Part shown: positions 7,426-32,489 of the stretch, in pieces
Layout: each line of letters begins with the position of its first letter
Numbering within the stretch: position 1 is the first letter of the stretch
Source: Nemertoderma westbladi
Lineage: Eukaryota; Animalia; Xenacoelomorpha
NCBI GenBank assembly: GCA_032718475.1
Contig: JAUCBJ010007323.1
Coordinates: 1-33,297, forward strand
Direction of reading: 5' to 3'
DNA: 33,297 nucleotides
Notes under the pieces: generated by a model
Databases searched by the model: none
Told to the model about the DNA's origin: nothing
Seen by the model: the letters and a program-made list of their open reading frames with translations, nothing else
Program-made: the position numbers and the translations under genes

Positions 7426-8808
7426 GGGTAACAGACGTTTCGGTCTAAGACGTTTTGGCCTAGGACGTTTCGGCCCAATGAATGAAATACAAGATTTGCT
7501 TGTCGGACGTTTTGGCCCAAAGATTCACTTTACTCCCTTAAATAAGCGATTAATAATAAGTTATTCAATATATTTGTTTTGTAGTTGTTACGTTCGTTAC
7601 AAGAGGAGTTGTCAGTAGGAACTGCTCGAACACTTGTTTGAAAGTCGTCAAGATCGAAGTTCTACATTATATTTATAAATAATAACTAATGTAATATTAT
7701 TATTATTATTTATTAATATAAATTTACACCATACTGTAACTTAGAACAAAGATAACATATGTTGACAAATTAACTTTAGTATTATGATGATGGGGTTTCC
7801 CCCATAAAAAAACATACGTATTTTAAAATGTGAGTCAATAAATTAAGTACATTAAAATAAACCGAATTAAAATTATTACTGTATTTTAATGTTGGTCTTA
7901 AAAATATAATAGATAAGAAATATTTCATTATAGGAGCATTGCTAATAATTAAGAGACAGACAGGATGTCATATGGAATGAGATAAAATATATGCGTATTA
8001 AATTTAAATTTAGATGAAATGTATGCGTATTAAATTTAAATTTAGATGAAATGTATGCGCATTAAAAGGACCAGAGTGGATGTGAAGTGAAATAAAATAT
8101 GTATTAAAAGCATATGTATTAATAAAAGCATGATACGTCGTATGCGCATTAAAAGGACCAGAGTGGATGTGAAGTGAAATAAAATATGTATTAAAAGCAT
8201 ATGTATTAATAAAAGCATGATACGTCGTTATCTATCTATCAGTATAAATCAAAATCATCTATCATCGAAGATGAGAGTTATTGTTTCAACAGATCATTAA
8301 GACATAGCTGCAATACACTGTCCAGCTACAAGAATTATCAATTGAGTAGGCCTAATGTTTAAAGTTAATGAAGTATCTCCAAAATATATCGATCAGACGA
8401 GATATAAGCTCTACATGGGTCGTGAAATTGATTCACTTTGGTAGTACTGTATATTAGCAATGTGGTACTCGAGACCAATAGATTTGTTCTGACTTGCATT
8501 TTTTCGGCCGCATAACATAATTGATGGCGAATTGTTTATGAAACCAGAGCACCACTTCCCTTGTTTATTTTATTTTGAAATAAAGGTAAATTAAATAGCC
8601 ATTTCATGAAATATATTTTATTAAGTGTTTGTATGTTATTGTGAAATAATTATAATTTTAATGAATAATTATTATCATATCAAACAAGTTGGCCTTTTCA
8701 TTAAGTTACAGTCATGGGCCGAAACGTCCGGGCCGAATCGTCCGGGCCGAAATGTCCAGGCCGAAACGTCCTGGACCGAAACGTCCTAGGCCGAAACGTC
8801 TGTATACC
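7426..8808. mobile_element. Non-autonomous MULE/Mutator-like element with tandem-repeat TIRs, 1383 bp
   Basis: 9-bp TSD TCCTAAAGA (7417-7425, 8809-8817), present once in the intact LTR. Termini GGGTAACAGACGTTTCGG / reverse complement GGTATACAGACGTTTCGG. 14-15 bp GGACGTTTCGGCC(T/C) units at both ends in inverted orientation. No transposase. Confidence 0.88.
7990..8228. repeat. Internal tandem duplications (32 bp x2, then 87 bp x2)
   Basis: TATGCGTATTAAATTTAAATTTAGATGAAATG twice, then TATGCGCATTAAAAGGACCAGAGTGG...GATACGTCG twice (8054-8140, 8141-8227). Confidence 0.85.
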
Positions 8809-9127
8809 TCCTAAAGAATGCGCCATATATGTGAATTATAATTAAGCCATATCGTTGTGAGTAGTTTAAGTCATAACTCTGTTTATATAGATAAAGCGCC
8901 ACGTCCTAAAGGAACTGTTAATATTCCCGAAGGTGAATAATATTGTCAGAGATTATATAATACTGTCAGTCCGGAGTTGGGATTTGGCCGGAGCCGGAGT
9001 TGGGCAATTTGGCCGGAGCCGGAGTTTTTCAAAAATTTTAAAAAATTAATTATTTATTAAAAAAAAAATAAAGTATGGTTATCGTTCGCCAATCGCTCAT
9101 AATCAATCATACTGCTGTACTGTAGGT

Positions 9128-10982: not shown

Positions 10983-12728
10983 TTAGTATCCACCTGTAAT
11001 GTACTCATTATCAGTTTCTTCTTTCCTTTTTCTTTTACGCCTGTTCTTTGCTCTGGCTTCCCTATCAACGCGGTTAGCAGTGCGGACACGTCTCATGTCC
11101 AAGGAGAGTAGGCCATAGTTAGTATGTTTGCCTGGGTCTATCCCCAGCTGCTTTAGGACACGTATTCGAGATTCATTTCCATCATTATAGACCAATACAG
11201 CATCCAATGTTCCGAGTTGCAGCGTGTGTATACCAATAAATACTCGCTTTGGGCACCGAGTCCAAATTGAGTTATTTAAACTCTCGTTTACATTTTGAGT
11301 TTTCCCATGAAGGCACTTTGATAAGAGTTTATTCTCAGTGAGATCTCGATATATTGGTTTCAGCTTCAAAAGTATCGGTTCCGGAATTGAATTTTTATGA
11401 GTATAGGCTTGTTGGGTGATTTGTGCAATGTTATATTTGCACCAACTATCAGCACCTTTGGGGCAAAGTCCATGGGATGGGTTTTTGTCAGTGGAGAGAT
11501 AGTGGAAATACGTTGCCCAGATTGCCTTTTTCATCGCATCGACACTGTGACCATTTGCCCGAATAGCATTTCCATAGTAACCTTGAAGCCTATCTATCCG
11601 CGCGTCTGTTAGTCTGTTTTTACCAGAAATCACTCTTCCATCTGACAGTTTCACACCCTTCAGTGAAGCTTTCAATTTCCGCAAGCGACAACCCATCCTC
11701 TTTTGCACATGGCCCACACATTCTAGTTTTTCAATAGTTACTTTATCCCCATATGGTCTACTCTGGGCAACTTCAGAGAACGAGTTAGTATCACCATCAC
11801 CTAAATATTTGGTATATCGCATTCCTAGTTTAGACTTGCTTCTTTGAAATAGTATTCTAGCACCAACACCCTCCATTGCACCACTAGACCCACTATGATT
11901 TTTCACACAGACATTTTTATGTGCTTCAACACTTTCTTTCCTGATTGAACAACCGTGGCAATGTTTAGTTAGGCAGTGAATGTCTAAAACTTTCCCAGTA
12001 TCCATGGCAACTATAGAAACAACACCATTTTTTGATGTATGTCCACGTTTCTGCCATGAACCATCAATCGAGATGCCAATGTCTGTATTTCCACCATTTT
12101 CTTTTATTACCTCCTTAGCTGCGTCTACCATTGAGGCTTCTGCAATTGGTTTAGCAGCTTCAAGTAATGATTTTGTGTGTTCAATAAATTTTTGTGGAGG
12201 TTGTGGCAGTCCCATTATGCTGCATAAAGTGTTACCTCCTTCAAATCCCACACCAATACAACGCAAACCATACACTAAACGCAAATTAATTTCATATTGA
12301 TTATCCACTAATGGCGATGTATAAAACCTTTTCAGACTGGTACAATTATCGCAATGTAGTTTCAATTTGGAAGATAAACCCCTGCCACAGGTGTCTTCAT
12401 CAATTACTACAACTCCACCACAAGACTTACAACATGTATATTCCGATAACACACAATTCAAAATATCCAAATCTAAAACAATAAACCCCAGCCTGCCGGA
12501 ACTTTCATCGACCAACCCACTTCGGTTTAGTTTCTTAGTTGAAGCCGATATTTCTTTTACGGGTTTAGTAGGCCTATCAGGAATTTGAACAGTACCGGTA
12601 CTTTGTTTTTCAACCGGTGGTGTAGTACAGGTACTTACGGGGATTGGAATAGATTTGGCAATAACATTCGAACTAAATCGATTACCATGGTAGGAACGCT
12701 TTCCAAATATCGCTTTTCGTCTTGTCAT
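10983..12728 (-). CDS. DDE transposase, Kolobok-type (often annotated 'Mutator-like'), 581 aa
   Basis: Uninterrupted ORF. N-terminal CKSC...CDNC zinc ribbon; ISIDGSWQKRGH (D1), YLGDGD (D2), ECVGHVQKR (HxxK), TQNVNESLN (E); basic C-terminal NLS-like KNRRKRKRK. Confidence 0.92.
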   Translation of the reverse strand: MTRRKAIFGKRSYHGNRFSSNVIAKSIPIPVSTCTTPPVEKQSTGTVQIPDRPTKPVKEISASTKKLNRSGLVDESSGRLGFIVLDLDILNCVLSEYTCCKSCGGVVVIDEDTCGRGLSSKLKLHCDNCTSLKRFYTSPLVDNQYEINLRLVYGLRCIGVGFEGGNTLCSIMGLPQPPQKFIEHTKSLLEAAKPIAEASMVDAAKEVIKENGGNTDIGISIDGSWQKRGHTSKNGVVSIVAMDTGKVLDIHCLTKHCHGCSIRKESVEAHKNVCVKNHSGSSGAMEGVGARILFQRSKSKLGMRYTKYLGDGDTNSFSEVAQSRPYGDKVTIEKLECVGHVQKRMGCRLRKLKASLKGVKLSDGRVISGKNRLTDARIDRLQGYYGNAIRANGHSVDAMKKAIWATYFHYLSTDKNPSHGLCPKGADSWCKYNIAQITQQAYTHKNSIPEPILLKLKPIYRDLTENKLLSKCLHGKTQNVNESLNNSIWTRCPKRVFIGIHTLQLGTLDAVLVYNDGNESRIRVLKQLGIDPGKHTNYGLLSLDMRRVRTANRVDREARAKNRRKRKRKEETDNEYITGGY

Positions 12729-14351
12729 CTCGACGTTTCTTCACTCCACATATAAAATATATACCAATGCAGCATAAAATAATGCATAAAACAGGTAAGA
12801 GCAGAGATAAAATGTCTAACTGTGACAGAATGATCAGCTGATAATAGGCCTACCAAACTAGCTGTGCTTTTATTCAGATTATTGCTATAAAAATGTAAAA
12901 AGATGTAGTGTGCTATCAGTTTGAATTTCCCTCCAATTTGGTGCAGCCAATGACAGCGTCTTAGCTGCTCAGCTGAATTTCAATGTAGATTTATTTTTAA
13001 TTTTTCACATTTATCCCTCTCAGATTTGAAAATTTTGAAATGAATATTGGACTACATCCATCATAGCAGGTCAGATATAGTTACTTTAACAATTTTTATT
13101 ATGTGGGTTGATTCGCCTGACTGAGATAAATCCCAAACTATTTAGTTTTCCAAAAAAGACCGATTGGTGCTCGAGAAATAGCAGTTTAAAGATCAAAATT
13201 TTATGAATTTCGTTTTCAATTGAGTTTATCTCAAAATGACATATCCGTACACAAATGCCCCATTATTTCCAAAAGTTTTCGACCAAATTACTCAATATTT
13301 TGATTGAAGGTGTGGAATGACATGTCTCAAACATTGAACTAGAATTTTGATGTGAGCATTACTATTTTTTAAATTATTAATAAACTTTTGAGCTAAATAG
13401 TGCTAAATTATTAACTATTATTAATAATATTAAAAAGTTAAGGAAGTTATTAATTTTTTTCAATAATTCTAGTTCAATGAGTTATATTAATGTTTCTCTA
13501 CATATGTTCAAAATTTTGAGAAATTTCAATCAGAATATCACAAGATAACGGGGTAAATGTTAAATAGTAAAACATTAGTACTCCCTGCTCCCCTTAATAC
13601 TAGTAAACCACGCAGCAGTCGCTTGTTTACATTTCTACTCGAGTGATATCATGGCGTTCTAAATTCTTATACGGTAGAACCACATGAGTGGAATATAATC
13701 CGTGAGTGTTAGAAACATCAAACACTATGCATAAGATAATATCCGGTATCCGGATGTTGGAAAATAAATCAATAGACGAGATGCTATGTTGCCTACAGCT
13801 AAGTAGCCAATATAAGCTACATTGTTACCGTAGCAGCCTATTTCCTCGCAGAGCAAATATAAATATATTCCAGCCTTCCGTTTGAAATGTAAACAACCTA
13901 CTGTATAATATAGGCCTACACGATATGGGGCGTTCGCGCAGCACGTGATAAAAATTTATGTTGATTTATAAACTCGAATAGATTTTAAACCAAAATATGA
14001 TATTTCCAGTGCCTATAATTTTGCCCGCTAGGGTCACAATGGGTAACTACAGACGCGCCAATCCCTCACTAATACAGACAGTTATCTGTCAAAAATGGGT
14101 TATATTTATTTTATATGCTGTAGTTGGTAAATATTAGGCTAGAACGAAATATGAGGTTTTCACTTTCTGACATTCGCCATCTTGCGGCAGAGACTACAAA
14201 GTTTCGTATTTAAGGGATTATACGCTATAAAATGGGAAAAGGTTTTCACTTTCTGACATTTATCCCTCTAGTGGCACACTAGAGAACTGCGGATGGATTA
14301 ACATTCTCTCAAAGAATCGGGATTGAAAACCAACCTGCTTTAAAACGAACC

Positions 14352-14595
14352 TGTGGGGCGAGCCACGAAGTGAGTAAGCCTTAGCGTAGGGGTACCATTA
14401 ATCAACCTGTCGTTCTGTCGCGTTTTTTTTCAGTATTTTATTTTAAACGTTAATAACTCGGTCAATCCTTGATGAAATCTATCCAAACTTTGGTACACAT
14501 GTTGTTTGGCAAAAGTTTGAAAATTTTCCAAGTAGAATTTGCGTGGGGCCTTCGTGCAGCATCAGTGTAACTGTTATTGCAGTTATAATAAATTT
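14352..14595 (+). mobile_element. HINE/DINE-1-like element (second copy at ~15896-16147)
   Basis: CTGTCGTT microsatellite, core ATAACTCGGTCAATCCTTGATGAAATCTATCCAAACTTTGGTACAC, subterminal GTGGGGCCTTCGTGCAGCA and 3' stem-loop TAACTG-TTATTG-CAGTTA. A related subterminal motif occurs at ~13926 (+) and ~30021-30042 (-). Confidence 0.55.
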
Positions 14596-15236
14596 ATTTA
14601 TCCAAATTTAAAATGCGTTATTATTACTGTAGGATAAATCAGCTGGGTTTCTGACAAAATTTTGCAATACATTAGGGCTGTCTGCCAATCTGCATGTACC
14701 ATGTGTACCGGTACTGTCAGGCTGTACTCAATCCCTGAATCGAGAATCCTGCAATCAGTCAATACTGTAATACTGGTCAGCCAGTACTGCGGTACCATAC
14801 ACTGCAGACATGCCATATCATGTAATCTAATTAAACATGGCCCAGCAACCCTTGCGGTGATTATAGTTTAGGCCTAATTAGCCCAGTACCGGCACCGGTA
14901 ATAATCTTATAATAGTTTAGATAGTTACCGCTATTCATTCAGTCATTGGCACGGTACACCGTATTGCTGTACTGCCGTTGTAGTGCGCACCGTAGGTACC
15001 ACCCTACTACCAGATATAAAATAGTTATCTAAATTATATATATTACTATTGACAAGTATTGAAACATATGCCGTTATTCGTGTTATCAGTATTTGCAACA
15101 TCTGACATTGAAGAGGTGAGAGAAGATGAATACCAGCACTCAACAAAACCAACGCTTATCACAGGTCGGTATGGTTACCTCGAAACCGGCGCGACTGTCC
15201 ACTCGAATACAACTTCAAAACACAAACGCCAACAAT
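14352..15236 (+). repeat. Local duplication, copy 1 (HINE-like element plus ~650 bp downstream)
   Basis: Collinear, highly similar to 15896-16908, from TGTGGGGCGAGCCACGAAGTGAG to CACAAACGCCAACAAT. Confidence 0.93.
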
Positions 15237-15587
15237 GAACTCCACCTCATAGAACTTCATGTGTCTCCATCTGAAGTAGATATTTGTATTCTTCATAAAT
15301 TTATATGATTATAGGCTTATCAATGACTTCACCAGTAATCACCTAAACTGTAGGCTTGAAGTATTTCGAACATGCGTGGTTTTGACACAGAGCCGAAGGT
15401 CTTGAAGAAGACAATGAAAAATTTATGAACTATTAAAATTACGTTGTAAACACAACAAATGAAATCAAGTTTTAACGTTTATTCACTTCTTTTAAGTTAA
15501 TCGTTTAGTTTACATGTTAATGTAATGACTTGGCCCAAGACTCCGCGAGAGAATCGAATTTATTATAATTTCTTCTAAATATCGTGG

Positions 15588-15895: not shown

Positions 15896-16908
15896 TGTGG
15901 GGCGAGCCACGAAGTGAGTGAGCCTTAGCGTAGGGGTACCATTAATCAACCTGTCGTTCTGTCGTTCTGTCGCGTTTTTTTTCAGTATTTTATTTTAAAC
16001 GTTAATAACTCGGCCAATCCTTGATGAAATCTATCCAAACTTGGTACACATGTTGTTTGGCAAAAGTTTGAAAATTTTCCAAGTAGAATTTGCGTGGGGC
16101 CTTCGTGCAGCATCAGTGTAACTGTTATTGCAGTTATAATAAATTTATTTATCCAAAATTAAAATGCGTTAAATTATTATTACTGTAGGATAAATCAGCT
16201 GGGTTTCTGACAAATTTTGCAATACATTGGGGCTGTCTGCCAATCTGCATGTACCATGTGTACCGGTACTGTCAGGCTGTACTCAATCCCTGAATCGAGA
16301 ATCCTGCAATCAGTCAATACTGCAATACTGGTCAGCCGGTACCATACACTGCAGACATGCCATATCATGTAATCTAATTAAACATGGCCCGGCAACCCTT
16401 GCGGTGATTATAGTTTAGGCCTACGCCTAATTCAGTAATTAGCCCAGTACCGGTAATAATACTATAATAGTTTAGATAGTTACCGCTAATCATTCAGTAA
16501 ATGGCACGGTACACCTTATTGCTGTACTGCCGTTGTAGTGCGCACCGTAGGTACCACCCTACTACCGGTACCGGCTGACCGGTGGCAACTAGCACTTCAG
16601 CACTTGTACAGTAACAGCACTACCGGCGATACACAGGTTGGAATTTATGTAGAGTTTGCTCAACAGTACAGATATAAAATAGTTAACTAATTTATCTATA
16701 TTACTATTGACAAGTATTGAAATATATACCGTTATTCGTGCAATCAGTATTTGCAACATCTGACATTGAAGAGGTGAGAGAAGATGAATACCGGCACTCA
16801 ACAAAACCAACGCTTATCACAGGTCGGTATGGTTACCTGTTACCTCGAAACCGGCGTGACTGTCCACTCGAACAGTCGAATACAACTTCAAAACACAAAC
16901 GCCAACAA
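15896..16908 (+). repeat. Local duplication, copy 2
   Basis: Matches 14352-15236; carries an extra ~100 bp at ~16567-16669 and several small indels. Confidence 0.93.
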
Positions 16909-17181
16909 TAAACTGAAAGCGAATCGAACGTCTTCAGAAGAATCTGTCATTGGGACGAAGAAAAGGAAGCCGAAACCACAGGTATGGACCACAGCTAAGA
17001 TTGAATGCTCCCATTGTCAGAGTTCCTGGACCGAAATTGAAACACCAATTGCCGATGGGCTTGATCTCTCAAACCAAAACTTCCTCTGCGGGGTTTGCGC
17101 GGCAGTAAAGATTGAAAGTCTGGAAGCTGGCATCCCTAGGTATTATTATTATAAAGAGCGTCAGCCTGCGTTTAATAAATA
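16784..17181 (+). CDS. C4 zinc-finger-like ORF fragment (possibly LINE ORF1 N-terminus), cut by the LTR insertion
   Basis: KKRKPK...IECSHCQSSW...FLCGVCAAVKIESLE. CxxC-x23-CxxC followed by KIxxLE resembles CR1/L2 ORF1 zinc fingers. The frame runs into the LTR at 17182. Confidence 0.4.
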
Positions 17182-18419
17182 TGTACGCGCTTTTGGAAGA
17201 CCTTTAGCAGTTTAACCTGCCAAAATTTATATGTCTTTTGGTTTATAAATATACTTTAGAAGATGACAAATATTTAATACCAATAAACACAACATTAGCA
17301 GAAGCCAGCCTAGTGCGCGTCCATTCACCCGCTGGATATTCCCGGGAGACTGGATTCTGAGGGCTTAGATTATTATTGCAGTGAAACCTACTGTATTATT
17401 CGATTGATCGTTAATAAATAATTTCTGACTAATATTATTCACTTTCGGGAAATATTAACAGTTCCTTTAGGACGTGGCGCTCTATCTAAGTAAACAGAGA
17501 TATGACTTACACTAATCACAACGGTAAGTCGGTAAGGCTTATGATTCACGTATGAGGCGCATTCTTTAGGAAATGCTTAGTTATCAGTCACAATCAGGCA
17601 CACTACCGGTAACACACAATACTGCTCACTAATTTGCCGACCGTCAATGATTTTTATCATATATAGAGAGAACAGCAACGGACCAATGTAGTGCTTATCA
17701 AATAGCATTAAATTCACTACATACACAATAATATAAGTCGCAATCGCTATATATAACCCGTCTCTCTAACCTGTAGTGTATCAAGAAAATTGGGAAATTT
17801 GGGTTCTTTATATATGTTCTCCAAATAATATTCAACCAAAACACAACAGTAAACAGCATTAAGACGGTAGGTTAAGATATGATATGACAAGATGTGACAA
17901 GTGAGTTGGACTGATAACAGTTATACGCTCTTATAATCTTAAGCCTACTAATGTTTCTTCTAAAGTATGAAACGAATTAACTCTAGAGCCGGTGTTCCTG
18001 GCCTAGATAGAAACAACACAACAGTATCACAAAAACCAGTAAGACTGAACGCTCTAGCATGATCTGCCCAAAAGCTCCACATCTACAGAAAAAATCGTTC
18101 TGATTGGTCAACCGAACCACGAGAGAACAAAGAAACAAAGAAATGTCGACGTGGCAATATCAGCTGTTAGCCGTCGTCATGGTAGCGACACTGTTTTCAA
18201 GAGTATCCAGCTTATCGCGTCACGAGATTGCGGATTATGTCCTCTAAAGTACAAATCTAGAAGAATGACTTTTATGTCCGTTAAAACACCTATAACGGTA
18301 ACTTGCGTGCGAGGGGAATATATATATAGTTAGAAAGCCTTTTTAGAGTATTCCAGCGCCTGGGGGGAACTCGGACCGCAAAGCAAAAGGGCCAGCTAGA
18401 TCCCACAGAAGCTTTTACA
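17182..18419 (-). repeat. 3' LTR
   Basis: 1238 bp, TGTACGCGC...CTTTTACA on +; about 11 substitutions and no indels versus 28461-29698 (counted by eye). Confidence 0.97.
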
Positions 18420-18428
18420 CCGCTCCCA
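18420..18428 (-). promoter_or_regulatory. Short G-rich polypurine-tract-like site
   Basis: Minus strand TGGGAGCGG|TGTAAAAG immediately before the 3' LTR. Confidence 0.55.
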
Positions 18429-18497: not shown

Positions 18498-19658
18498 TTA
18501 GTCTTTCTTGCGCGGACGGCGTTTACGCAGTTTCTTAAAGCTAGCCAGAGTCCTTTTCTCTTTGGGGCGAGCCACTTTACAAGGAGGGCTATAACTCCTG
18601 GGTGAAGGGTGCAATATGATTGCATCAGAGGGTGTAGGATTATGGTCGGTGTATCCGCCAGTCGAAGTACCGGGTTGATTGATGTCAACGTCAGGTGAGA
18701 GGGGTCTAACGGCTTTGAGAGCTCGTTTTAAGACAGCCGCTCTTACGGGTCCTTTACGAGTGGTCTGAACGAGAGCCGTAGGTGGACCATAGGCAGTTAG
18801 AAACTTCCTGGGTTTAATGGTTCTTTCCAACTCGCGTTCGCGGGCTCGGTATTCATAAGGCCGATATACCTCCTGTAACTCAGGGTGTGAGTTAACAAAT
18901 AAGTCTCCATAGTCCGGATCTTGACGGATATAATTGATTAAGTTATAGGAGTGAATGTCGCTAGGATTAATACTCCGGAGAAATTTGCGCACAAACTTGG
19001 TTGAAATACATTCTCCGACACGCTTCAGTAGCTCGTAACTCGATATGCGTGATTTCTGTTCAACAGAAGCGAATAGATAAGGATGGAACGCATAAACTCC
19101 TTCGTAAGCGCGTCCGGGATAATAGCGATGGCGCGAATCACAATGTAAATCAGCGTTCGCTTCCCAAGCTCGGATGTAACGTAGTGTGATCATTTCATCT
19201 ACGCTTTCCAAATCGCGATTAAAAGGGCAATCGAAACTGGCGTGTCCCTTTAGTTGACAATGGTGACATTGAGTCATAAATTGAGGGCAAACCGCAAAGA
19301 TATGCAAGTTATTGAGTCTGCAATATGCGCAATAGATTTCCATAGTCGGTTGTTCTTGGAAATAGGAACAGCGGACGTTGGTGTCCATGGGCGTATCGTG
19401 GTCTCTCGATGCGCATAACCGACAACGTTGCCGAGAAACATAGTTGGCATGGCGATAATCGTACGCAGCGAGACACTGTGGACCTTGATACCATTCTAGG
19501 AGGTAATCGTTGTCGCTGTTCCGGGCGCGATAGGCTGAATCTCCTCAGATTCTAGGCATATTGGTTCGTCTTCCCAGTCTGTTACGAATATGATTTTCGT
19601 GATCTATTCTCGGTTTATCGTTACGACTCCGCTGGGTATGATATTTAAATAGAACCAT
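18498..19658 (-). CDS. Accessory ORF with CCHC-type zinc knuckles and a basic C-terminus; one in-frame TGA at 19545-19547
   Basis: The 296-aa track ORF extends upstream in frame to 19544 and, across one TGA, to an ATG at 19658. Motifs CRLCASRDH-x9-C, CAYCRLNNLHIFAVC and CHHCQLKGHASFDC (CX2CX4HX4C); tail KKLRKRRPRKKD. Confidence 0.75.
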
Positions 19659-21571: not shown

Positions 21572-23074
21572 TTACGTTATGGAGTCCCTAGATATTTGTC
21601 GGATTAGGGAAGTGGTCGTAGGAAGAGTATCTTGCCTTCCATAGTTTCCGGACAGTTTTCGGTCTCTTTCCAGTAAACATAAACGACTAGCTGGGCGATT
21701 GAGTTGTTGTGTTACTTTCTCCGCTCCCTTGGCCTGTCTAATTTCTGCCGTGGTAAGATGAGGAGGCCATTCTTCTTCTTCTTTACTTAAGGAGTCGGAT
21801 CCACCTAACCAGCCTGGAGTATCTATCAGTTCTTGAAGAGTTGCTCCTCTGGAAGCGATGTCGGCTGGATTAATCGTCCCAAGGCAATGTCTCCATTGAT
21901 CTACATTGGAGTTAATATTGTCATTATCTGAGGAGTATGGTGTTCCCTCAGTTGGATCGTCCACATCACTGCTCTCCACTTCCCATTCCTTTACTTGGTA
22001 TACCTGTTGTTGAGGTAATCTCTCTTTGAGAGTTCTACGGGAAGGGCCAGTGAAGTACCAACCTACTCTAGTTCTTACCGCATAGGTTTGTAGTGGCTGC
22101 GGTTGAGCAGGCCGTTTCTCCAATGTCTCGAGCGCCTCATGCGCGTTTTGGCCGATGAGTATTTGCACTCCAGGATAATCTGTCTGGAATCGAGGTATCT
22201 TAAGATGTTGGATGCTCTCATCCTCGTCCCAATTATAAAGGTCTGCTTGGGTAGTAGCGAAGTTCTTTATAGCCACCATTTTTACCGACCTTATACCTTG
22301 TGCTCCTAATTTATCCTGGGGGGTGGACAACACACCTACATAGTAATCTGCCGTTAGGGTAGATTTCCAAACCTGCATAATTCCTAACATATTCAATTTA
22401 GTCCGGAATTTGGGTTGTCCAGCAAAGATATCTTCGGCTAGTTCTTGATCGATGAATGTTCCTGTGCTGCCGGAGTCAAGGAGGGCGTTCACTATGTAAC
22501 TTTTGTTAGGACCATGAACTCTTACCTGCACTACAGGAAATTCTCTGATTCCTACGTTGGAAGTTGGAGCTTTCCAAGATGGTTGTCTGGCAAAAGTAGT
22601 TGGGGGGAACTCATTGTCGGTGTCCTTTTCATAAGTAAGTGCTCGATACACTGCGGTATTGATTAGATAACAGGATTCGTTGGCGTCGGAGAATTCGTCA
22701 GTATAGAATCCTTCCATCTCAGATTCTTGATCAGTGTCGTTTACATCACTGAATTGGACATGTAGTTCGGGCTCACTTACCTGACTCAGTTTGTCTCGTT
22801 CGAACTCACTGTGTAACAAGATGTGATGTTTCGCGCCACACTTTGCACACTTTATGTCGGAGTAACAGGTTCGCCGTTGGTGTCCTGATCTGAGGCAATT
22901 ATAGCATAACCGCTTATTCCACAGGACTGTACGTCTGTCTACAAGGGATTTCTTTAGAAATTCAGCGCACGCACTCAAACGGTGGGGCCCGTCGCACAGC
23001 GCACATTTTGGTTTGATGTTACTCACCTTACCTTGGGTAACGTTATGCACTCTCGTTCTTTCTTCAGGCTTTCT
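21572..23074 (-). CDS. BEL/Pao nucleocapsid + aspartic protease + RNase H tail + integrase C-terminal tail (internally deleted pol)
   Basis: CALCDGPHRLSAC, CYNCLRSGHQRRTC, CAKCGAKHHILLH; protease ALLDSGSTGTFI...ILIGQ...RTRVGWYFTGP; then directly DQWRHCLGTINPADIASRG...EEWP (Pao RNase H end) and RPASRLCLLE (pol C-terminus). Same frame as the upstream gag ORF. Confidence 0.9.
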   Translation of the reverse strand, partial: RKPEERTRVHNVTQGKVSNIKPKCALCDGPHRLSACAEFLKKSLVDRRTVLWNKRLCYNCLRSGHQRRTCYSDIKCAKCGAKHHILLHSEFERDKLSQVSEPELHVQFSDVNDTDQESEMEGFYTDEFSDANESCYLINTAVYRALTYEKDTDNEFPPTTFARQPSWKAPTSNVGIREFPVVQVRVHGPNKSYIVNALLDSGSTGTFIDQELAEDIFAGQPKFRTKLNMLGIMQVWKSTLTADYYVGVLSTPQDKLGAQGIRSVKMVAIKNFATTQADLYNWDEDESIQHLKIPRFQTDYPGVQILIGQNAHEALETLEKRPAQPQPLQTYAVRTRVGWYFTGPSRRTLKERLPQQQVYQVKEWEVESSDVDDPTEGTPYSSDNDNINSNVDQWRHCLGTINPADIASRGATLQELIDTPGWLGGSDSLSKEEEEWPPHLTTAEIRQAKGAEKVTQQLNRPASRLCLLERDRKLSGNYGRQDTLPTTTSLIRQISRDSIT

Positions 23075-26000
23075 TCAGTGAATTCTCTTAGGAGACGCAG
23101 GAGGAGTTGTTGTTACCTGTTCTCTCCTGTCACTGGTTCGAGACTTATATTTACTTACGTCCTTATAGGTCTTGTTGTCATAGTAAGATTTTGCTGTGTC
23201 TTTCCCGCTGTCCTCTTCTTGAGAAGCTTGGCTTTCGCCGTCGTCAGTATAACAAACTGGTATTATCCTTCTCCTAGAAACGGGTTTCTCACTTACCTTA
23301 TTTTCCGATGTTTTCTCTCTGGACTGCTTTATGAGTTGTAATTTTACTTCACTATCTAAGAAGGACATGAGATCAGCCATGGTAGGGCTTCGTCGTTGTT
23401 GTTCATTCATGTACAACACTTTCTTGTCCCAACGCGTACATACTCCGCCCTTTGGTAAAGTAGAGACTATTGCTCCAATAACCATGGAACTCTGATATTC
23501 ATGAGACTTACCTAACCAGTCAAGTTGTCTACAGATCTCTTGAATCTCATCGGAAAACTCTATAATCCCGCTACTAAGGAAGTGTCGGGGGGCTACTAAT
23601 TTTGCATACAAATACTTAGCTATGTTATCCTTGTTACCATACCTGACGTTTAATGTATCCCATACTTGTCTTAATCCTTCTGGATGTCCAATAAACTTTA
23701 ACGCCATTAACCTGGGAGGTCCTTCCAAGCACTTGATGAGGAACCTAAGTTTCTCTCCGTTAGATAGTACAGAGTTTTGTATGCTATCTTTGTAATATTC
23801 GTTGAAAGGTAACCATTTCATCTCATCTCCATTGAATTTGACGATCTCTCCCACTTTGACCGCTTGGCGGGCTTCTGTTCTAGCCATCTGACGCGTAAAG
23901 CTTTCTTGGGCCATCGTGTTATTTAATATCGAATTATCGGTATATAAATTTCCTAGATTATTATCAGGTCTATAGGGAATATCATTAACAACAGGTTTAT
24001 AATCACCCTTAATAGGGTTTGCTATAGGTGTTTCTACTTCACTAGCAGTATAGATGCGTGTAGGCTCCACACCTTGCGCATGTAATACTTCAGACCTAAC
24101 AGGTTGACACAATGTTACAGGGGGTATTGGTATGCCCTTTTGGATATTGACTAATTTGTCGCGTTCTAGTGCGATACTTTGCTGCACTTCTTGCAACTCT
24201 GCTCTACCTTCCCTTACTGTTCCCTTAAGTTGGTGGACAGTCTCCTGCATCTGTCCGAGCAGGAGATTCATCCCCCACCGTCCCTCCTCTACCCACTCGA
24301 CCGCCGAAGCGGGAGTCGCCAACATTGTAGCGGGCTGACGTGGGACGACGGGAGACAAATCTTTGATTTCTCTCTCAGCTTCCAGGACAGGGATATTCTC
24401 ATGGACTGTTCTACCGGGTACAGGCAGTGTAGTACTGTGTAAAGGGAACTTAGAGTTAAGCTCTGGAAGTACAGGGGTCTCTAGCACAGAAGTGACTTTG
24501 GGAACGACAGGCCTAATTATTTCAGGCTCATCAACTATTGTAGGGAGTCTTTTGACCTGAATAATTTGTTCTGTGGGTTCTGTACTACCTAGGTCTGTGC
24601 TAGCTAGTTGTCTTCTAACAGCTGGGGGCAAATCAGGCAATTTGTGACGGTGAGATGTTTTTCTACGCCTGCTCAGACGAGATCTATTTCCTCCACCTTC
24701 AGGATCAGTGGTCTCGCCTTCCTCCGAGGATGTGTATCCTTGGCGTTTGGGAGTAGATCGACTCATCATCTGCATTCGACTATCCGTTAACTGTCTGTTT
24801 ATGTGGTCTTGCGTCTCTTGCAGATTTTCTAACTCCATTTGGGTGGCCTCTTCAGACGCTTTCCGTTCTGCTTCTGCCACTGCCTCCGCTGCTTTTCTTT
24901 TCGCTTCGGCTGCTGCTTCTGCCGTCTTTCTATCTGCTTCGGCTTCTGCCATTGCCGCTGCTACTGCTGTCTTTCTATCTGCTTCGGCTTCTGCCATTGC
25001 CGCTGCTACTGCTGCTTTTCTGTCTGCTTCAGCCATTGCTTCTGCCGCCTTTCTATCTGCTTCTGCTGTTGCCATTGCCGCTGTTACTGCTGCTGTCTTT
25101 CGGTCCTCTATCCGTTTTTTCTTTACTTGTTCTTCTTGGACTCTAGTGAGGCGGAGTTTTTCATCAAATTCAGCTTGGTTAGCAGCTAACATTTCAGCAT
25201 CGATGGAGTCTAGCACACGCTGGGTTCCTTCACTATTAGGGGAAAGTTCAGACAGCCGTCTCCTCAACTCTTCGTCGCCTAGGAATCGCTGATAGTCGGA
25301 CAGATAAATGTCGATGGCGTCTCTCGTTCGTGGTCTCTCTGCGGTCTCTTCGCCTTCCACTTGAGAAAGGGTGGCATCGGTTGGTTCTTCATAGGTTGGT
25401 CTCTCAGCCAGCTGGGATTTCCACTGGTCCGTTTCTTGTACTTTGAGACCTACCCGCTGGAACCAAGTTTTGACAGCAACCTGCAGCGACGTGTCCTGTC
25501 TTCTTTTGGAAGTTTCCTCAAAGGCGGATAGGATTAGTCGAATGCGTAGGGTTCTTTCGCGTACTTGATATAGCAGTTCTTCCTGCTCCTGAGGTCCTTG
25601 GGGTTGTCGAAACAGTTGTTCTTCTAATCGCTCTAAGGAGCCGAAGAACCCCTGCACATATCCTGCTGCCGACCTCTTCCAAACAGCTGGATCCATTGTA
25701 TCTTTAACCACTCCCATCCTGTGTATATCTTCCCAAGTAGCCTCGGACACATCTAACGGGAGTCCGGGTCCGGGAAAGTTCCATTGTGACTCGACAATAG
25801 ACATCAATTCTTCCCTGGCGTATCCCGCATAATTATCTTGGGTCGCTCGCTTATTTCTCGCCCAGTCGGCTTGATGTTCCTCCACCGCAATCAATATAGT
25901 AGTTAGTACTGCGGCAGGAAGGGTGAGAAGGGGGTCTGAGTAGGTTGTAGCCGCCATCGGCAATCCGCGTTTGGGGGTCAGCTCTACAGTATCCGAACTA

Positions 26001-26269
26001 CTGGAGCTATCGGGTCGCTGGGAACTAGGTTCTTGACCAAGATGTTGCTGCGATAGGACAGCTGCCTCTTGGTTCCGTTTGACCTGGGCCCGAGTGCCTA
26101 TGATGAACCTATGGTGGATTAGCCTAGGGTCTGATACTACTGGAGGGATGACCTTTCTTGCAGTAGGAGGTGAACTGAACTCCTTTCTTAATCGCTCCAC
26201 ACTCCTATCTGTGTCACAGATGGTGGTATCGATTAGACTGTCTGACAGGTTTTGCTGAGTGTCAGACAT
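23075..26269 (-). CDS. gag: BEL/Pao Gag (DUF1759-like capsid region) with a long N-terminal extension, 1064 aa
   Basis: KFNGDEMKWLPFNEYYKDSI...LSNGEKLRFLIKCLEGPP...VWDTLNVRYGN and IVSTLP...RW...PTMADLMSFLDSE are typical BEL/Pao Gag motifs. Ends at a TGA in frame with the downstream NC-PR ORF. Confidence 0.92.
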   Translation of the reverse strand: MSDTQQNLSDSLIDTTICDTDRSVERLRKEFSSPPTARKVIPPVVSDPRLIHHRFIIGTRAQVKRNQEAAVLSQQHLGQEPSSQRPDSSSSSDTVELTPKRGLPMAATTYSDPLLTLPAAVLTTILIAVEEHQADWARNKRATQDNYAGYAREELMSIVESQWNFPGPGLPLDVSEATWEDIHRMGVVKDTMDPAVWKRSAAGYVQGFFGSLERLEEQLFRQPQGPQEQEELLYQVRERTLRIRLILSAFEETSKRRQDTSLQVAVKTWFQRVGLKVQETDQWKSQLAERPTYEEPTDATLSQVEGEETAERPRTRDAIDIYLSDYQRFLGDEELRRRLSELSPNSEGTQRVLDSIDAEMLAANQAEFDEKLRLTRVQEEQVKKKRIEDRKTAAVTAAMATAEADRKAAEAMAEADRKAAVAAAMAEAEADRKTAVAAAMAEAEADRKTAEAAAEAKRKAAEAVAEAERKASEEATQMELENLQETQDHINRQLTDSRMQMMSRSTPKRQGYTSSEEGETTDPEGGGNRSRLSRRRKTSHRHKLPDLPPAVRRQLASTDLGSTEPTEQIIQVKRLPTIVDEPEIIRPVVPKVTSVLETPVLPELNSKFPLHSTTLPVPGRTVHENIPVLEAEREIKDLSPVVPRQPATMLATPASAVEWVEEGRWGMNLLLGQMQETVHQLKGTVREGRAELQEVQQSIALERDKLVNIQKGIPIPPVTLCQPVRSEVLHAQGVEPTRIYTASEVETPIANPIKGDYKPVVNDIPYRPDNNLGNLYTDNSILNNTMAQESFTRQMARTEARQAVKVGEIVKFNGDEMKWLPFNEYYKDSIQNSVLSNGEKLRFLIKCLEGPPRLMALKFIGHPEGLRQVWDTLNVRYGNKDNIAKYLYAKLVAPRHFLSSGIIEFSDEIQEICRQLDWLGKSHEYQSSMVIGAIVSTLPKGGVCTRWDKKVLYMNEQQRRSPTMADLMSFLDSEVKLQLIKQSREKTSENKVSEKPVSRRRIIPVCYTDDGESQASQEEDSGKDTAKSYYDNKTYKDVSKYKSRTSDRREQVTTTPPASPKRIH
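24861..25100 (-). repeat. In-frame 45/24-bp tandem repeats encoding an Ala-rich helix (AAAMAEAEADRKTAV)
   Basis: Exact 45-bp period at 24925 and 24970, plus degenerate flanking units. Confidence 0.9.
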
Positions 26270-26375
26270 GTTTAGCTATACAGTTGAATGTCTACTGCTA
26301 TAGTTTCAGTTAAAGCAAGTCTAGTAATTCAGTATAACCGTTGGCCTAGTACCGTTAATTTATTACAGTATATTA

Positions 26376-26622: not shown

Positions 26623-27607
26623 GTCAATTATTTTAAAATAATTGAATTTCTGAATATTTTAGGGTTACTTGGTTACTTTAACTTACTTTATTACCGTTAT
26701 TTAAGCAGTAGTCCAACTGATATTGAGACCTAGTTGTTGTATGGCAAGCCTACTATTTATAAATCGTTTGAGTTGATTTATAATAGATATATACCCGTTT
26801 AAAAGGGGTTTTGTCAATATTTGAAATAAATGTTATTATTTCTGGGGGTTCACTACACAGAAGCTGTGCGCTCTCAGTGAAGTGCTATTTATTGGACACT
26901 AAAACAGATAATTCTAATTTACCTAAGTTACTTAATACTACAAATTACTTACGATATGGGTGAGATTAATTCTCTAATTAAAACACAACAAAAAATATTA
27001 CGTACGAAATTTTTAGGGTAATTTTACAGGGAAAACTACAAACCAGCCTAACAAAGGGTTAGAATTCTGGTTATTACAACTGACAGGGTACTACGGTATT
27101 TAAAATAATAAGTAGTAGTAAATATATTGCACTGTCCAGATAGGAAAATACCACCGCCTGACGACCTATAGCCGTATCGCTATAGGTACTACGTTATGTA
27201 TCACGGAGTGTTCCTACCTAGAAGTTAATAGAGCTAACGAACGTGCCTATCAACCACTTTACAACACAAATATACTGCCTACACACTAATTACTTTCGGA
27301 AAGCACTGTACACTAAACCCTAAATTAGGTACAAGTACTGATACAACAAATAATCAGTAGTTAAATATACTTGAACAGTTAAAAGAACCACGGCATCTGC
27401 TGGAGTGACCGAAGCACAAAGTCACCAGTCTTTTCCTACGCCAAGCAGCCCGTGTAGTACCGGGGTTAATTTAACTATAACGGTATGTATAACAAGCACA
27501 ATTACTGTAGGAATAAACTTGGGGACATGAATGTTGCGAATAATCGCATAAACTCTGAATAATAAATATTACGCTACCCGTACAGAATACTCAAACAAAT
27601 ACAAGCC

Positions 27608-28135
27608 AAACGCTGGCAGACTACCACCAAGCCTAAATAAACTACAGTATGTGCAGATTCCAAAACGGTTAGTTAGTATGCGTTCTAACACGGTAGTACG
27701 ACTTATTCTTTAAGAGGGGATTGACCTTACAGCATATGGCTGCCCCAACTTACTAACTGGCACTCTATCGGACAAACTCTACACACGCAGTAATCTCTTC
27801 AGACCTAATAATAGCTAGACAACAATCCAGCCTACAAAATATCTGAGTAATAACTATTACGGTACCTGAACAGACCACACAAACAAACACAGGCTAAAAT
27901 GCTGGCAGACCACGATCAAGCCTAAATAAACTACAGTATATGCAGATTCTGAAATGGTTAGTTAGTATGCGTTCTAACACGGTAGTACGACTTATTCTTT
28001 AAGAGGGGATTGACCTTACAGCATATGGCTGCCCCAACTTACTAACGGCACTTTATCAGACAAACTCTACACACGCCGTAATCTCTCCAAACCCAACAAC
28101 AGTCAGACAGCAGCTCAGCCTACAATTATCTGAAC
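27608..28135. repeat. 289-bp-period tandem duplication in the 5' leader
   Basis: GCTGGCAGAC at 27612 and 27901; long identical core GTTAGTTAGTATGCGTTCTAACACGG...GCCCCAACTTACTAAC. Confidence 0.92.
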
Positions 28136-28449
28136 AATCTGAGCAGACTTACACGTCTTCAGCTCAATATTAACTTACTAGGAAATAAAACTGACAGAAA
28201 TAGACCTAAGTAAAATCCCAATAAAAACCAGGCGTCCCCGATTTAATATCGAGACCTACCGGTATACAATAATCAAAAATCGAATAATACTAATGTACTT
28301 ATACTGGAAGTACCGGTTAGGACAGTTGGGCCTACAGACCTACAGAAGTACCGGTTCTGGCAGTTAGGCCTACTGACCTACAGATGTACCGGTTCAGGTT
28401 TACCGGTTGACCGGTACTTTCAACTTTATTGTTTACTGCAATAAAGTCA

Positions 28450-28460
28450 ATAACTGTTAT
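28450..28460 (-). promoter_or_regulatory. PBS position: ATAACAGTTAT, not tRNA-like; complementary to an 11-mer inside the LTR
   Basis: Minus strand reads ...GCGCGTACA|ATAACAGTTATTGAC with no TGG. The LTR minus strand has ATAACTGTTAT at 29203-29193 (and 17924-17914). Confidence 0.55.
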
Positions 28461-29698
28461 TGTACGCGCTTTTGGAAGACCTTTAGCAGTTTAACCTGCC
28501 AAAATTTATATGTCTTTTGGTTTATAAATATACTTTAGAAGATGACAAATATTTAATACCAATAAACACAACATTAGCAGAAGCCAGCCTAGTGCGCGTC
28601 CATTCACCCGCTGGATCTTCCCGGGAGACTGGATTCTGAGGGCTTAGATTATTATTGCAGTGAAACCTACTGTATTATTCGATTGATCGTTAATAAATAA
28701 TTTCTGACTAATATTATTCACTTTCGGGAAATATTAACAGTTCCTTTAGGACGTGGCGCTCTATCTAAGTAAACAGAGATATGACTTATACTAATCACAA
28801 CGGTAAGTCAGTAAGGCTTATGATTCACGTATGAGGCACATTCTTTAGGAAATGCTTAGTTATCAGTCATAATCATGCACACTACCGGTAACTCACAATA
28901 CTGCTCACTAATTTGCCGACTGTCAATGATTTTTATCATATATAAAGGGAACAGCAACGGACCAATGTAGTGCTTATCAAATAGCATTAAATTCACTACA
29001 TACACAATAATATAAGTCGCAATCGCTATATATAACCCGTCTCTCTAACCTGTAGTGTATCAAGAAAATTGGGAAATTTGGGTTCTTTATATATGTTCTC
29101 CAAATAATATTCAACCAAAACACAACAGTAAACAGCATTAAGACGGTAGGTTAAGATATGATATGACAAGATGTGACAAGTGAGTTGGACTGATAACAGT
29201 TATACGCTCTTATAATCTTAAGCCTACTAATGTTTCTTCTAAAGTATGAAACGAATTAACTCTAGAGCCGGTGTTCCTGGCCTAGATAGAAACAACACAA
29301 CAGTATCACAAAAAACAGTAAGACTGAACGCTCTAGCATGATCTGCCCAAAAGCTCCACATCTACAGAAAAAATCGTTCTGATTGGTCAACCGAACCACG
29401 AGAGAACAAAGAAACAAAGAAATGTCGACGTGGCAATATCAGCTGTTAGCCGTCGTCATGGTAGCGACACTGTTTTCAAGAGTATCCAGCTTATCGCGTC
29501 ACGAGATTGCGGATTATGTCCTCTAAAGTACAAATCTAGAAGAATGACTTTTATGTCCGTTAAAACACCTATAACGGTAACTTGCGTGCGAGGGGAATAT
29601 ATATATAGTTAGAAAGCCTTTTTAGAGTATTCCAGCGCCTGGGGGGAACTCGGACCGCAAAGCAAAAGGGCCAGCTAGATCCCACAGAAGCTTTTACA
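28461..29698 (-). repeat. 5' LTR
   Basis: 1238-bp direct repeat of 17182-18419. The minus strand contains CCAATCAG (~29385) and TATATAAAG (~29090). Confidence 0.97.
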
Positions 29699-31092
29699 AA
29701 ATATATTTTAATACAAAACAGGTCGAACGCAAAGAGGCTTATAATGAAGACGAGTACTGCATTGATTATATTCCTATAAACCACCTGGCTTTGCATATTG
29801 AACGTGCGTTTGGAAATAAGTTCGTGCTACCCTTCCGTGGGTGGTAGATGTCGCGGTTATGTATTGGTGGGTGGGGGGAGGGGGGGGGGGGGTGCAGGTT
29901 AAAAGGGGTGAACACGTACTGTCCCCCTTTCTTTGATTAATTGGTGGTGTGGGTTAATCTCTCATAACCTGATTTTGTGATACAGTCGCACAATTTTAAT
30001 TTGTATCTCATAACTGGCCTCGTGCTGCGCGAAGGCCCCACGAACGTGTTGTATCTCACCGCATAATTACATCCGTCCTAATGTACCGAAAATACCGAAG
30101 TCCTTATGTACAATACAAAATGCCCGTTAATATTTTTTGTTGCTTTTTCACAATTCAATAACATGCCAGTGATCCTTTTAGGCTGGCCTAAAAAACTGGT
30201 CTTGGGGAAAAAAACTTTCAGTTTCTGGTATCATTAATGCACTTACAAGGTGGTACCGGTATCAGATGTGCCGATATACAGTACACTAATATTAGATAGC
30301 ATTGTGGTTCCTCTCGGTCCAATCATTCTATAATGAAAATTTCACACCATTATATTAAAAAAACATTATTTCATCACCAGCAAGCTGTAATTAAAATATA
30401 ATTGGATAACAAACAAAGGAAAAAAGCTGTTAGAGAACCACAATATGGTTGCCCGTCATTTAGTTCATTCCGCGGGACTTAGACCCCATACCTCCCACCG
30501 CGGCCTACAACGTGCCAAATGCAATGTTAGCACACTTTTTTAAGATTGATGTGGAAAGTCACCTTCAACTTACTAATTTTCGAGGACAATATATACTATT
30601 ATATAATACCTCATAAATCGGGACAAGCGGGACAAGCAGGGCATGGTCCGATGACAATGCAAGTTAATCATAAATCCAGGGATATCCAAAATCTCAAAAT
30701 CCTTACTACCAAATTATATAATATTCCCAAAACCCAAATTCACAGAAACCATTGGTTCTGTTTGTCGCGACCCCCCCCCCCCCCCTCCAACTGAAACAGT
30801 ATAATTTAGAATACCGGTACTGAAAGTGAAATTGAATGCTGACATCGCGAGAACCTCCATTTATAATTTCAAAATATTCGAAAAAATAATCATTATGGAT
30901 AAATACATACAATACAAACATACATGTATAAAGGGCCTACTATATAAAACACAAAATACTGCATAATTCCTATTTTTTAATTAATTATTGTTATTAATGA
31001 TAACATCGTCCGTTGAATGTGTGAATAAGTTTCAGCTCTACAATGAATCCAAATTTTGGTTATATTCATCCAATCGTCTGTAGTTCTCATTC

Positions 31093-31536
31093 TCAATACT
31101 TCGGAAACAATTCTTCGGATGTAAATATTTCCCCCTTTTCCTTGGCTTCTTTGGTTGCGTTGCTTTTCAGACCGGTCCCGTCGTTCAATAGGAGATGGTA
31201 CTGATCGCCTTGCCTCCAATCGTCCCATGGAAACCGACGGCGTTTATCTATGTGAACATCCGGGTGTCGCATAGCAACGCGCAGCGTAAACCACGTAGTC
31301 CAGGATACCGATCCTAAGAGTACCACAAAGAGAACTCCCATACTCCGGTTTTGAGCGTGGAAACTTTTGTTGAACATACAATCACGGAAGAATCTCGCTT
31401 TCTTTCCATAACCAACACGTCCAATATTCCATCCTCTAGCAATAGCACCAGTGTTCCAAGTAAAACGATCTTTAATTACTGGTTTCTGTTCTGTGGCCTC
31501 AGCTTTTGCAGCGGTTTTCCTATAGTTGGCCGCCAT
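31093..31536 (-). CDS. NDUFA4: NDUFA4/COXFA4 (B12D-family)-like protein with N-terminal extension, 147 aa
   Basis: Single TM segment MGVLFVVLLGSVSWTTWFTLRVAM followed by HPDVHIDKRRRFPWDDWRQGDQYHL, matching the NDUFA4 pattern LRLA..NPDV.WD....PW......QYK. No intron in the CDS. Confidence 0.8.
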   Translation of the reverse strand: MAANYRKTAAKAEATEQKPVIKDRFTWNTGAIARGWNIGRVGYGKKARFFRDCMFNKSFHAQNRSMGVLFVVLLGSVSWTTWFTLRVAMRHPDVHIDKRRRFPWDDWRQGDQYHLLLNDGTGLKSNATKEAKEKGEIFTSEELFPKY

Positions 31537-32489
31537 TGAGCATTGGAAGGATTGAATGGAAACAATAGTCTTGATGTTCCCTCGTAAGCATTTATTTATA
31601 TTCGTACTTATAGAATTGTTACTTACTTCCTGTATTATATAGAACTTTTATAGAATTGATACTTGCTACTATTGGCAGTAATTAAGGGAATTTCGGTATA
31701 TGCCAAGCGTTCCAAGTTATTGTATTATAATATGTATTTTCCTTGGTGCTAAATGTTAATTTCAAATATAAGCGTAACTATATATTTTAGTTATTACTCG
31801 CACCAACTCATCCAATTTATGAATTTAATTTTATTTTATTGAGTATACTTCACTACTTAATATCTGAATACGCGCTTCCCTAGCTATTCCAACTCATATA
31901 TAAGTAATTCTGCTGTCAGACAGATTGTGTCGAATAACACACATATTGAATTAATCACACTTGACTGGGGGGGTTTTCCTGTGTGCAGAGACGTGGATTC
32001 TACTGTTTGTAGTAGATAAGGATGTAAAATGATAACACGGTGTGCAATATGCGATGAAATATATGTCGGAATATTGGGACATAGGTGACACAGGACAAAA
32101 AATGTATCTAATTATTGATAAATAATATAATATAGACAACCCAACATGGGTTAACATAACCTACTATAATGCTACTATAACCAACAATTATAGTAGCTTC
32201 ATGGGGTAAGGTAGGAAATCAGTAGAAAATAAACAGGGTATAAACTGTAGAAACAGGGAGGGGGGTTTGGCGCAAATACCATCTCTGCGGATTAATATTT
32301 CGTTTATAAATTTTGGGAAAAGAGCAGATTTCAGTGGCAAGTTATCCTAATCAAATCAAGTAACGAACCTCAACAGAACAGGTTCCAGTTTCATTTTTGG
32401 AGGTAATATAATCAGTTGTTATTTGCGTCGATTTCCCCTGTTGAGGAATGCGTTTTTATTGCGCCGAAAGTCTCTCCTCCCACCCCCAC

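Follow-up and report, generated by a model that had tools for sequence, protein, structure and literature searches.

The window analysed here, a stretch of 33,297 nt from Nemertoderma westbladi, carries on its minus strand a 12,517-bp LTR element whose LTRs have TG...CA ends. The 5' LTR (28461-29698) and the 3' LTR (17182-18419) are each 1238 bp long, the ends of the former being set by flank divergence, and a 5-bp target-site duplication, TATTT, borders the element (upstream copy 29699-29703, downstream copy 17177-17181, minus strand). A purine-rich tract, GGGAGCGG (18420-18427, minus strand), abuts the 3' LTR without a spacer. The two LTRs show 11 differences over 1238 bp and are 99.1% identical. 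Ten of the 11 differences cluster in LTR positions 751-1082 (28617-28948 and 17338-17669 of the window). This clustering points to conversion, to template switching or to a mosaic in the assembly, and makes LTR identity a poor clock here. The 2.2-kb 5' leader contains a tandem duplication of about 290 bp at 27554-28133, its copies being 87% identical.

The gag ORF encodes 1066 aa (23075-26275, minus strand) with a DUF1759 domain (PF03564) at aa 814-942 (E 5e-13); a search for gag homologs gave no match. An ORF for zinc fingers and an aspartic protease (21572-23074, minus strand) follows in the same frame beyond one stop codon. That single stop codon (23075-23077), which splits gag from the zinc-finger/protease ORF, is a candidate readthrough signal or a lesion. 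After the protease the ORF skips to a short stretch of pol, one located in full-length relatives between PF05380 and the integrase zinc-binding domain. Domain and similarity searches found no RT, RNase H or integrase in the 12.5-kb element, and for that reason it was filed as a non-autonomous derivative; the assignment of BEL/Pao elements to clades goes by RT phylogeny. Before the 3' LTR, where an env or accessory gene would be placed, lies an extra intact Cys/His-rich ORF of 348 aa (18498-19544, minus strand), for which there was no Pfam match and a best Atlas score of 0.87, to CCHC-type proteins.

Judged from its sequence, the element is a young, non-autonomous BEL/Pao-type derivative. Three collinear segments of it match polyprotein P0057, and among the 23 library matches scanned 16 carry DUF1759 and 10 carry PF05380. 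The TG...CA LTRs, purine tract, short (5-bp) target duplication, DUF1759 gag, zinc fingers and aspartic protease are shared with the Belpaoviridae (PMC8742986). Unlike members of that family, the element has lost RT, RNase H and integrase by deletion, encodes the extra Cys/His-rich 3' ORF and lacks an 18-nt tRNA site. It is also large by the measures of the virus-taxonomy committee ICTV, with an LTR of 1238 bp at the top of the 0.2-1.2 kb range and a length of 12.5 kb that exceeds the range of 4.2-10 kb. In the ICTV description, Belpaoviridae have an 18-nt tRNA-complementary site and are primed by host tRNA, and their replication is called poorly understood (PMC8742986). The insect BEL/Pao element Achilles of the olive fly has a tRNA-Tyr site, according to the available text of PMC4580426.

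The flank of the 3' LTR pins the LTR end exactly, and therefore the leader begins at 28460, from where it reads ATAACAGTTAT. The initial annotation had noted that no TGG follows the 5' LTR; none occurs in the first 61 leader nt, so the element has no 18-nt tRNA 3'-end site of the ICTV type. Instead, the 11 nt that abut the LTR at the primer-binding site position (28450-28460, minus strand) have an exact reverse complement within the LTR, at LTR position 496-506 (29193-29203, minus strand), which is the candidate self-primer. This complement, which the initial annotation had placed at 29203-29193 with its match starting at the LTR edge, is confirmed and is also present in the 3' LTR (17924-17914). 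The match has offset 0 and ends after 11 nt. Earlier caveats that the 11-mer is AT-rich and quasi-palindromic hold as well; it is an interrupted palindrome, and hence the complement doubles as a direct repeat with one mismatch. The pattern ATAAC-N-GTTAT has three sites in the whole window, namely the primer site and its complement in each LTR. The primer-site/LTR duplex has an energy of -10.1 kcal/mol, within the range of -9.2 to -17.1 for the metagenome relatives described below, and the 11-mer is located at 40% of the LTR (36-60% in 13 relatives). As in the relatives L038/L057, no spacer separates the LTR from either the primer site or the purine tract, and by eye the offset of the primer site equals the purine-tract spacer in only some relatives. 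Palindromic cores like that of the element are also seen in the primer sites of L029, L017 and L009/L028/L062.

Shuffled leaders (20,000 trials) attain an 11-nt match in 0.15% of cases at offset 0 (P 0.0015) and in 0.5% at offsets 0-4 (P 0.005), and the Markov expectation for such a match is 0.001-0.005 per LTR. A complement in this LTR exists for 8 of the 10,031 element-internal 11-mers, the primer-binding site among them, and for 63 of 41,520 non-element 11-mers of the window. The same LTR also holds a second inverted repeat, 13 nt and exact (29247-29235 with 28542-28530), and a further exact 13-nt complement joins leader and LTR (28278-28290 with 28672-28684). Given the 13-nt inverted repeat and a palindromic 11-mer in an AT-rich LTR, the weight rests on the location exactly at the LTR edge, and by these counts and shuffles the match at that edge is beyond chance.

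A relic LTR of a sister subfamily lies on the plus strand at 6577-8972. An insert with inverted ends breaks it up at about 7415-8819, and a second insertion truncates it at about 8972. The relic and element LTRs agree poorly over LTR 100-410 (140/311 alike), and from about 400 on the fraction alike is 0.55-0.82 per 40 nt. At the site homologous to the 11-mer (7016-7026), 7/11 letters are alike, with 24/35 and 21/34 in the flanks, and the earlier caveat that this LTR does not keep the exact 11-mer is borne out. Being no better kept than its flanks, the relic 11-mer would fit drift with a co-changing primer site and equally no constraint. The 3' end of the relic LTR and its primer site were not found within the window.

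Contigs of public runs (X1, X3, X4 and X5, over 28100-29800) show a family that is very high-copy and variable. The 40 of 160 substitutions, 12 of 80 indels and 24 of 559 loose ends listed all lie outside the two 11-mers and the LTR end; as these are part of the variants, their absence from the 11-mers is not evidence of conservation. The X4 contigs give no cover across 29183-29353. Minus-strand intron ends were absent from the 15 joints listed for the run contigs over 28100-29800. Family-specific pattern searches returned two matches in viral contigs, neither similar to the window, and no match in metagenomes, and BEL queries against viral contigs returned nothing.

To collect relatives from metagenomes, eight polyproteins with a relationship to the protease region of the element were aligned and used as the query. 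In the part of the metagenome contigs scanned, 479 matches were confirmed, and the best 80 gave 79 loci. Flanks were too short in 17 of these, no LTR pair was present in 26, and the other 36 showed a direct repeat. For 11 of these 36 the LTR end was fixed by the flank (for L038 through its relative L057), and they form eight family groups. Each leader was scored against its own LTR at an offset of 0-4, either contiguously or across GT(A/G)AG...AG introns, and a single G-U pair was allowed. In none of the 11 fixed-end loci do the first 10 leader bases contain TGG; two loci have one at 11 and 14. A complement of 10-15 nt in the locus's own LTR was found in all eight family groups, with letters differing between groups, and reached at least 11 nt in six of them. 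Non-cognate LTR/leader pairs reached 10 nt in 4/126 cases and 11 nt in 0/126.

In seven of the eight family groups the complement runs across an LTR intron, and in the remaining one (L054) it is contiguous, at 10 nt. The spliced matches are 15 nt long in L007 and L010, 13 nt in L028, 12 nt in L023, L039 and L068, 11 nt in L009, 11 nt with one G-U pair in L062 and 10 nt in L057; L038 was missed under the strict acceptor filter and reached 10 nt under an open one. The introns are predicted from DNA, and on these predictions the first exon contributes 4-10 nt of a spliced match. When the filter was GT plus AG only, 8/11 loci had GTAAGT or GTAAGG as the donor of their best junction. Altogether an intron-dependent complement is seen in L007/L010, L009/L011/L028, L016, L017, L023, L030, L032, L035, L036/L038/L057, L039, L062, L068 and L077.

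A blind scan covered 18 loci with a known LTR start, the LTR end not being supplied. Matches of at least 11 nt appeared in 11/18 own pairs versus 6/306 non-cognate pairs, two of these six being from the related pair L047/L052. The scan added L047 (15 nt) and L052 (12 nt) as contiguous cases, both containing a T run. Matches were shorter than 11 nt in seven of the 18, with L005, L029, L040 and L062 under 10 and L035, L036 and L054 at 10. By eye, L029 has a 12-nt contiguous complement past the offset limit of the scan. The acceptor rule was relaxed and the range widened after by-eye matches in L016, L017 and L032, and the control was run under the same relaxed rule. As five of the 18 loci belong to the fixed-end set and two more come from its families, the two tests overlap, and a tRNA-primed BEL element to serve as positive control is absent from the locus sample.

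As far as leaders and LTRs can be compared, readable BEL/Pao relatives as a rule have a primer site complementary to their own LTR. The initial annotation had proposed to look for complementarity across relatives and for co-variation of primer and site; the former is present in 8/8 readable family groups, each with its own letters, and the latter is seen between distant families in both the fixed-end and blind scans. The closest loci share at most 30% identity with the element of the window, which a quick tree leaves on a long, unplaced branch. Since the relatives are this distant, they speak for a mechanism that is common nearby and not for its use by the window family itself. For the element a splice-built primer was tried and rejected. 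The best junction, from a non-consensus donor at LTR 502 to an acceptor at 649, yields a 10-nt complement at offset 1, and consensus donors give no splice-built complement at all, so the contiguous 11 nt is preferred.

These comparisons bear on the possibility that the 11-nt match is due to chance and that the primer is a half-tRNA-type fragment from inside a tRNA or some other fitting host RNA. The AT-richness of the 11-mer, the inverted repeat elsewhere in the same LTR and the lack of conservation in the sister LTR would all agree with a chance match, and half-tRNA priming is known in copia lineages, according to the available text of PMC6317226. However, the P values of 0.0015-0.005 at this position and the presence of the same feature in every readable family group of the superfamily make such an origin very unlikely.

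The complementarity could also be selected for a purpose other than priming, such as a long-range RNA structure, a masking switch or a dimer contact made by the near-palindrome, with a separate host RNA acting as primer. Consistent with a structural role, the site is an interrupted palindrome, several relatives have palindromic cores, and a hairpin and two more LTR-leader complements lie beside the site. The predicted hairpin, of 11-12 base pairs (28420-28449, minus strand), directly follows the primer-binding site in both the minimum-energy and centroid structures. A precedent is the fungal copia element GalEa, in which a palindromic hairpin site (Conserved Hairpin Site) directly after the LTR replaces the primer-binding site, with no tRNA site and no known primer in the available text of PMC5445492. 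Its authors, in the same text, found no complement of the site in the LTR, whereas the element of the window has an exact one. Moreover, the relatives' complements, 10-15 nt long, start at a distance of 0-5 nt from the LTR end, the place that the 3' end of a primer has to occupy, and change their letters between families; site homodimers are weak (-5.0 and -5.5 versus -10.1 kcal/mol for the duplex with the LTR). A structural role with a separate primer is unlikely.

Folding predictions were not counted as support for priming by the LTR segment because they depend on the ends chosen: predicted pairing of the 11-mer is 0.85-1.0 for 10/11 pairs with a start at 496 and an 81-nt leader, and 0 under three other end choices. 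For Tf1 a structure of three duplexes, the 'pretzel', is described in the available text of PMC10085805. A possible, weak second duplex of this type in the element would join LTR 1038-1047 (28652-28661, minus strand) to leader +17..+26 (28444-28435), of which it is the exact 10-nt complement; its shuffle p is about 0.05 in an exact Watson-Crick search. Such a second duplex was absent from the 12 relatives searched (p 0.09-1.0), and no extra duplex was found at the U5 end of the window element.

The promoter motifs of the element point both ways. The motif TCAGT (29189-29193, minus strand), which we take to be initiator-like, overlaps the last base of the 11-mer, and a transcription start there would leave the 11-mer outside the 5' end of the transcript. 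The best TATA-like motif, TATATAAAG (29085-29093, minus strand), lies 110 nt downstream of the 11-mer start, as the initial annotation had cautioned, and no TATA box is present about 30 nt upstream of 29203. The sister relic LTR keeps neither TCAGT nor the downstream TATATAAAG, which weakens both as a promoter. Among the eight relatives checked for a TATA box at the expected place one was positive, L068, with TATATAA 31 nt upstream of the matched segment, which would be the expected spacing if transcripts begin with the matched segment.

Judged by the promoter-like motifs that coincide with it or lie downstream, the 11-mer would be in U3, which is transcribed only at the 3' end, and this lends something to another form of self-priming in which the 11-mer of the 3' LTR (17924-17914) lies at a cleavage/polyadenylation site and provides the 3'-OH, either inside a single RNA or from one packaged RNA to another. 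The sole poly(A)-signal-like hexamer (AATAAA/ATTAAA) of the LTR tells against it. This is an ATTAAA at 28552-28557 (minus strand), 97 nt before the LTR end and 646 nt downstream of the 11-mer start, and 11/13 relatives likewise have such a hexamer 30-120 nt before the LTR end. In spliced relatives, furthermore, exon 2 and the poly(A) signal come after the primer segment, and priming from the RNA 3' end is extremely improbable.

Taken together, the match beyond chance, the absence of a tRNA-type site and the prevalence of own-LTR complementarity in readable relatives argue that the element probably primes reverse transcription with its own LTR 496-506 RNA segment and not with a tRNA. The self-priming proposed in the initial annotation is upheld to this extent; the splice-built form in most relatives was not foreseen there. 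By analogy with Tf1, the transcript would start at or slightly upstream of 29203, and its 11-mer would fold back onto the primer site over a loop of about 730 nt. RNase H of the RT of an autonomous partner, acting in trans, would then cut after base 506 to leave a 3'-OH, which RT would extend as strong-stop DNA before jumping to the 3' R region. Under the general LTR mechanism, plus-strand synthesis would re-copy the primer site from the primer, so that a change in the primer would be handed on to the site, and this would explain how letters differ from family to family while pairing is kept.

The window element would be the contiguous form of this mechanism, and most relatives would make their primer only after an intron has been spliced out of the LTR. 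In such relatives the 3' LTR would be the template for all sequence 5' of the cut and with it for the intron, and this could account for the intron's persistence through retrotransposition. On balance we lean towards the view that a large part of BEL/Pao is tRNA-free and primed by its own RNA, mostly through a micro-exon of a few bases that the host spliceosome would join to exon 2, and in other cases through a ready-made segment.

No description of self-priming in BEL/Pao was found in the titles, opening lines of abstracts and open text passages searched, in keeping with the initial annotation, which knew of none. Repbase notes reportedly mention self-priming palindromes in some Gypsy families, and an earlier mention for BEL is therefore possible. 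The words PBS, primer and tRNA do not occur in the main text of the BEL/Pao survey PMC3118150, and the Sinbad paper (PMC554778) has nothing on a PBS, priming or tRNA. The available portions of PMC9094657, PMC13524379, PMC3286476, PMC8220671 and PMC5443660 contain nothing bearing on BEL/Pao self-priming.

Self-priming is described for Tf1/sushi elements, Tcn1 chromoviruses and TAR copia in the accessible text of PMC6317226 and PMC4600332; in the sources as available it is proven for Tf1 only, with predictions for related chromoviruses and for one lineage of plant copia elements. The Tf1 primer is 11 nt, and its transcript start and RNase H cut are proven, according to the accessible part of PMC7175516; for the window element a start and a cut of this kind are predicted. 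Like Tf1/Tf2 of Schizosaccharomyces pombe, Tj1, Tosmo/Tcry and Tf1/sushi elements as characterised in the available text of PMC7175516, PMC10085805 and PMC4600332, the element lacks a tRNA site and has an LTR-internal segment of about 11 nt that complements the site after the 5' LTR. It belongs to another superfamily, however, with a DUF1759 gag, relatives that carry PF05380 and DUF5641, and a predicted loop of about 730 nt. Its proteins are of BEL/Pao type and not those of a Ty3/gypsy chromovirus pol with a chromodomain; the element may work like Tf1 without being a Tf1/sushi member. The three-duplex arrangement of Tf1 was not found in the relatives searched and has a weak, possible counterpart in the window element. 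Most BEL/Pao relatives would also need splicing to form the primer, and no such splicing is described for Tf1/sushi in the parts of PMC7175516, PMC10085805 and PMC4600332 available. The element resembles TAR/Houba/Osr-1 copia and plant Tcn1 chromoviruses in that self-priming is predicted from complementarity alone, outside the founding fungal elements (PMC6317226, available text); those, unlike the present one, are plant Ty1/copia or Ty3/gypsy elements and not BEL/Pao.

If the element is self-primed, self-priming would extend to a third LTR superfamily, with a bearing on the question, posed in the accessible text of PMC3601003, of an ancestral or a late origin for tRNA priming. It would also explain why annotation tools that seek a tRNA site give such elements no PBS. 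The splice-built form in relatives would connect the way retrotransposons are primed with splicing by the host; host splicing would then act as a gate on priming, and the definition of Belpaoviridae as tRNA-primed would hold for part of the family. With its high copy number, contiguous primer and one predicted start site, the element is a simple test case.

No tRNA genes were found in the window, and an Rfam search returned one chance-level match (U12, E 0.5). An ORF with a B12D/NDUFA4-like domain lies at 31093-31647 (minus strand; PF06522, E 1e-6), and a homolog search with it gave no match. An open ORF of 585 aa at 10983-12740 (minus strand) encodes a Mutator-like transposase (PF20700, E 9e-65). 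Two direct repeats (14352-15241 and 15896-16914), 90-93% identical, flank a 17-bp tandem array, the arrangement being possibly a small non-coding element. Each repeat copy holds a 10-nt look-alike of the primer site, and the initial annotation was right to point to a similar stretch at 14568.
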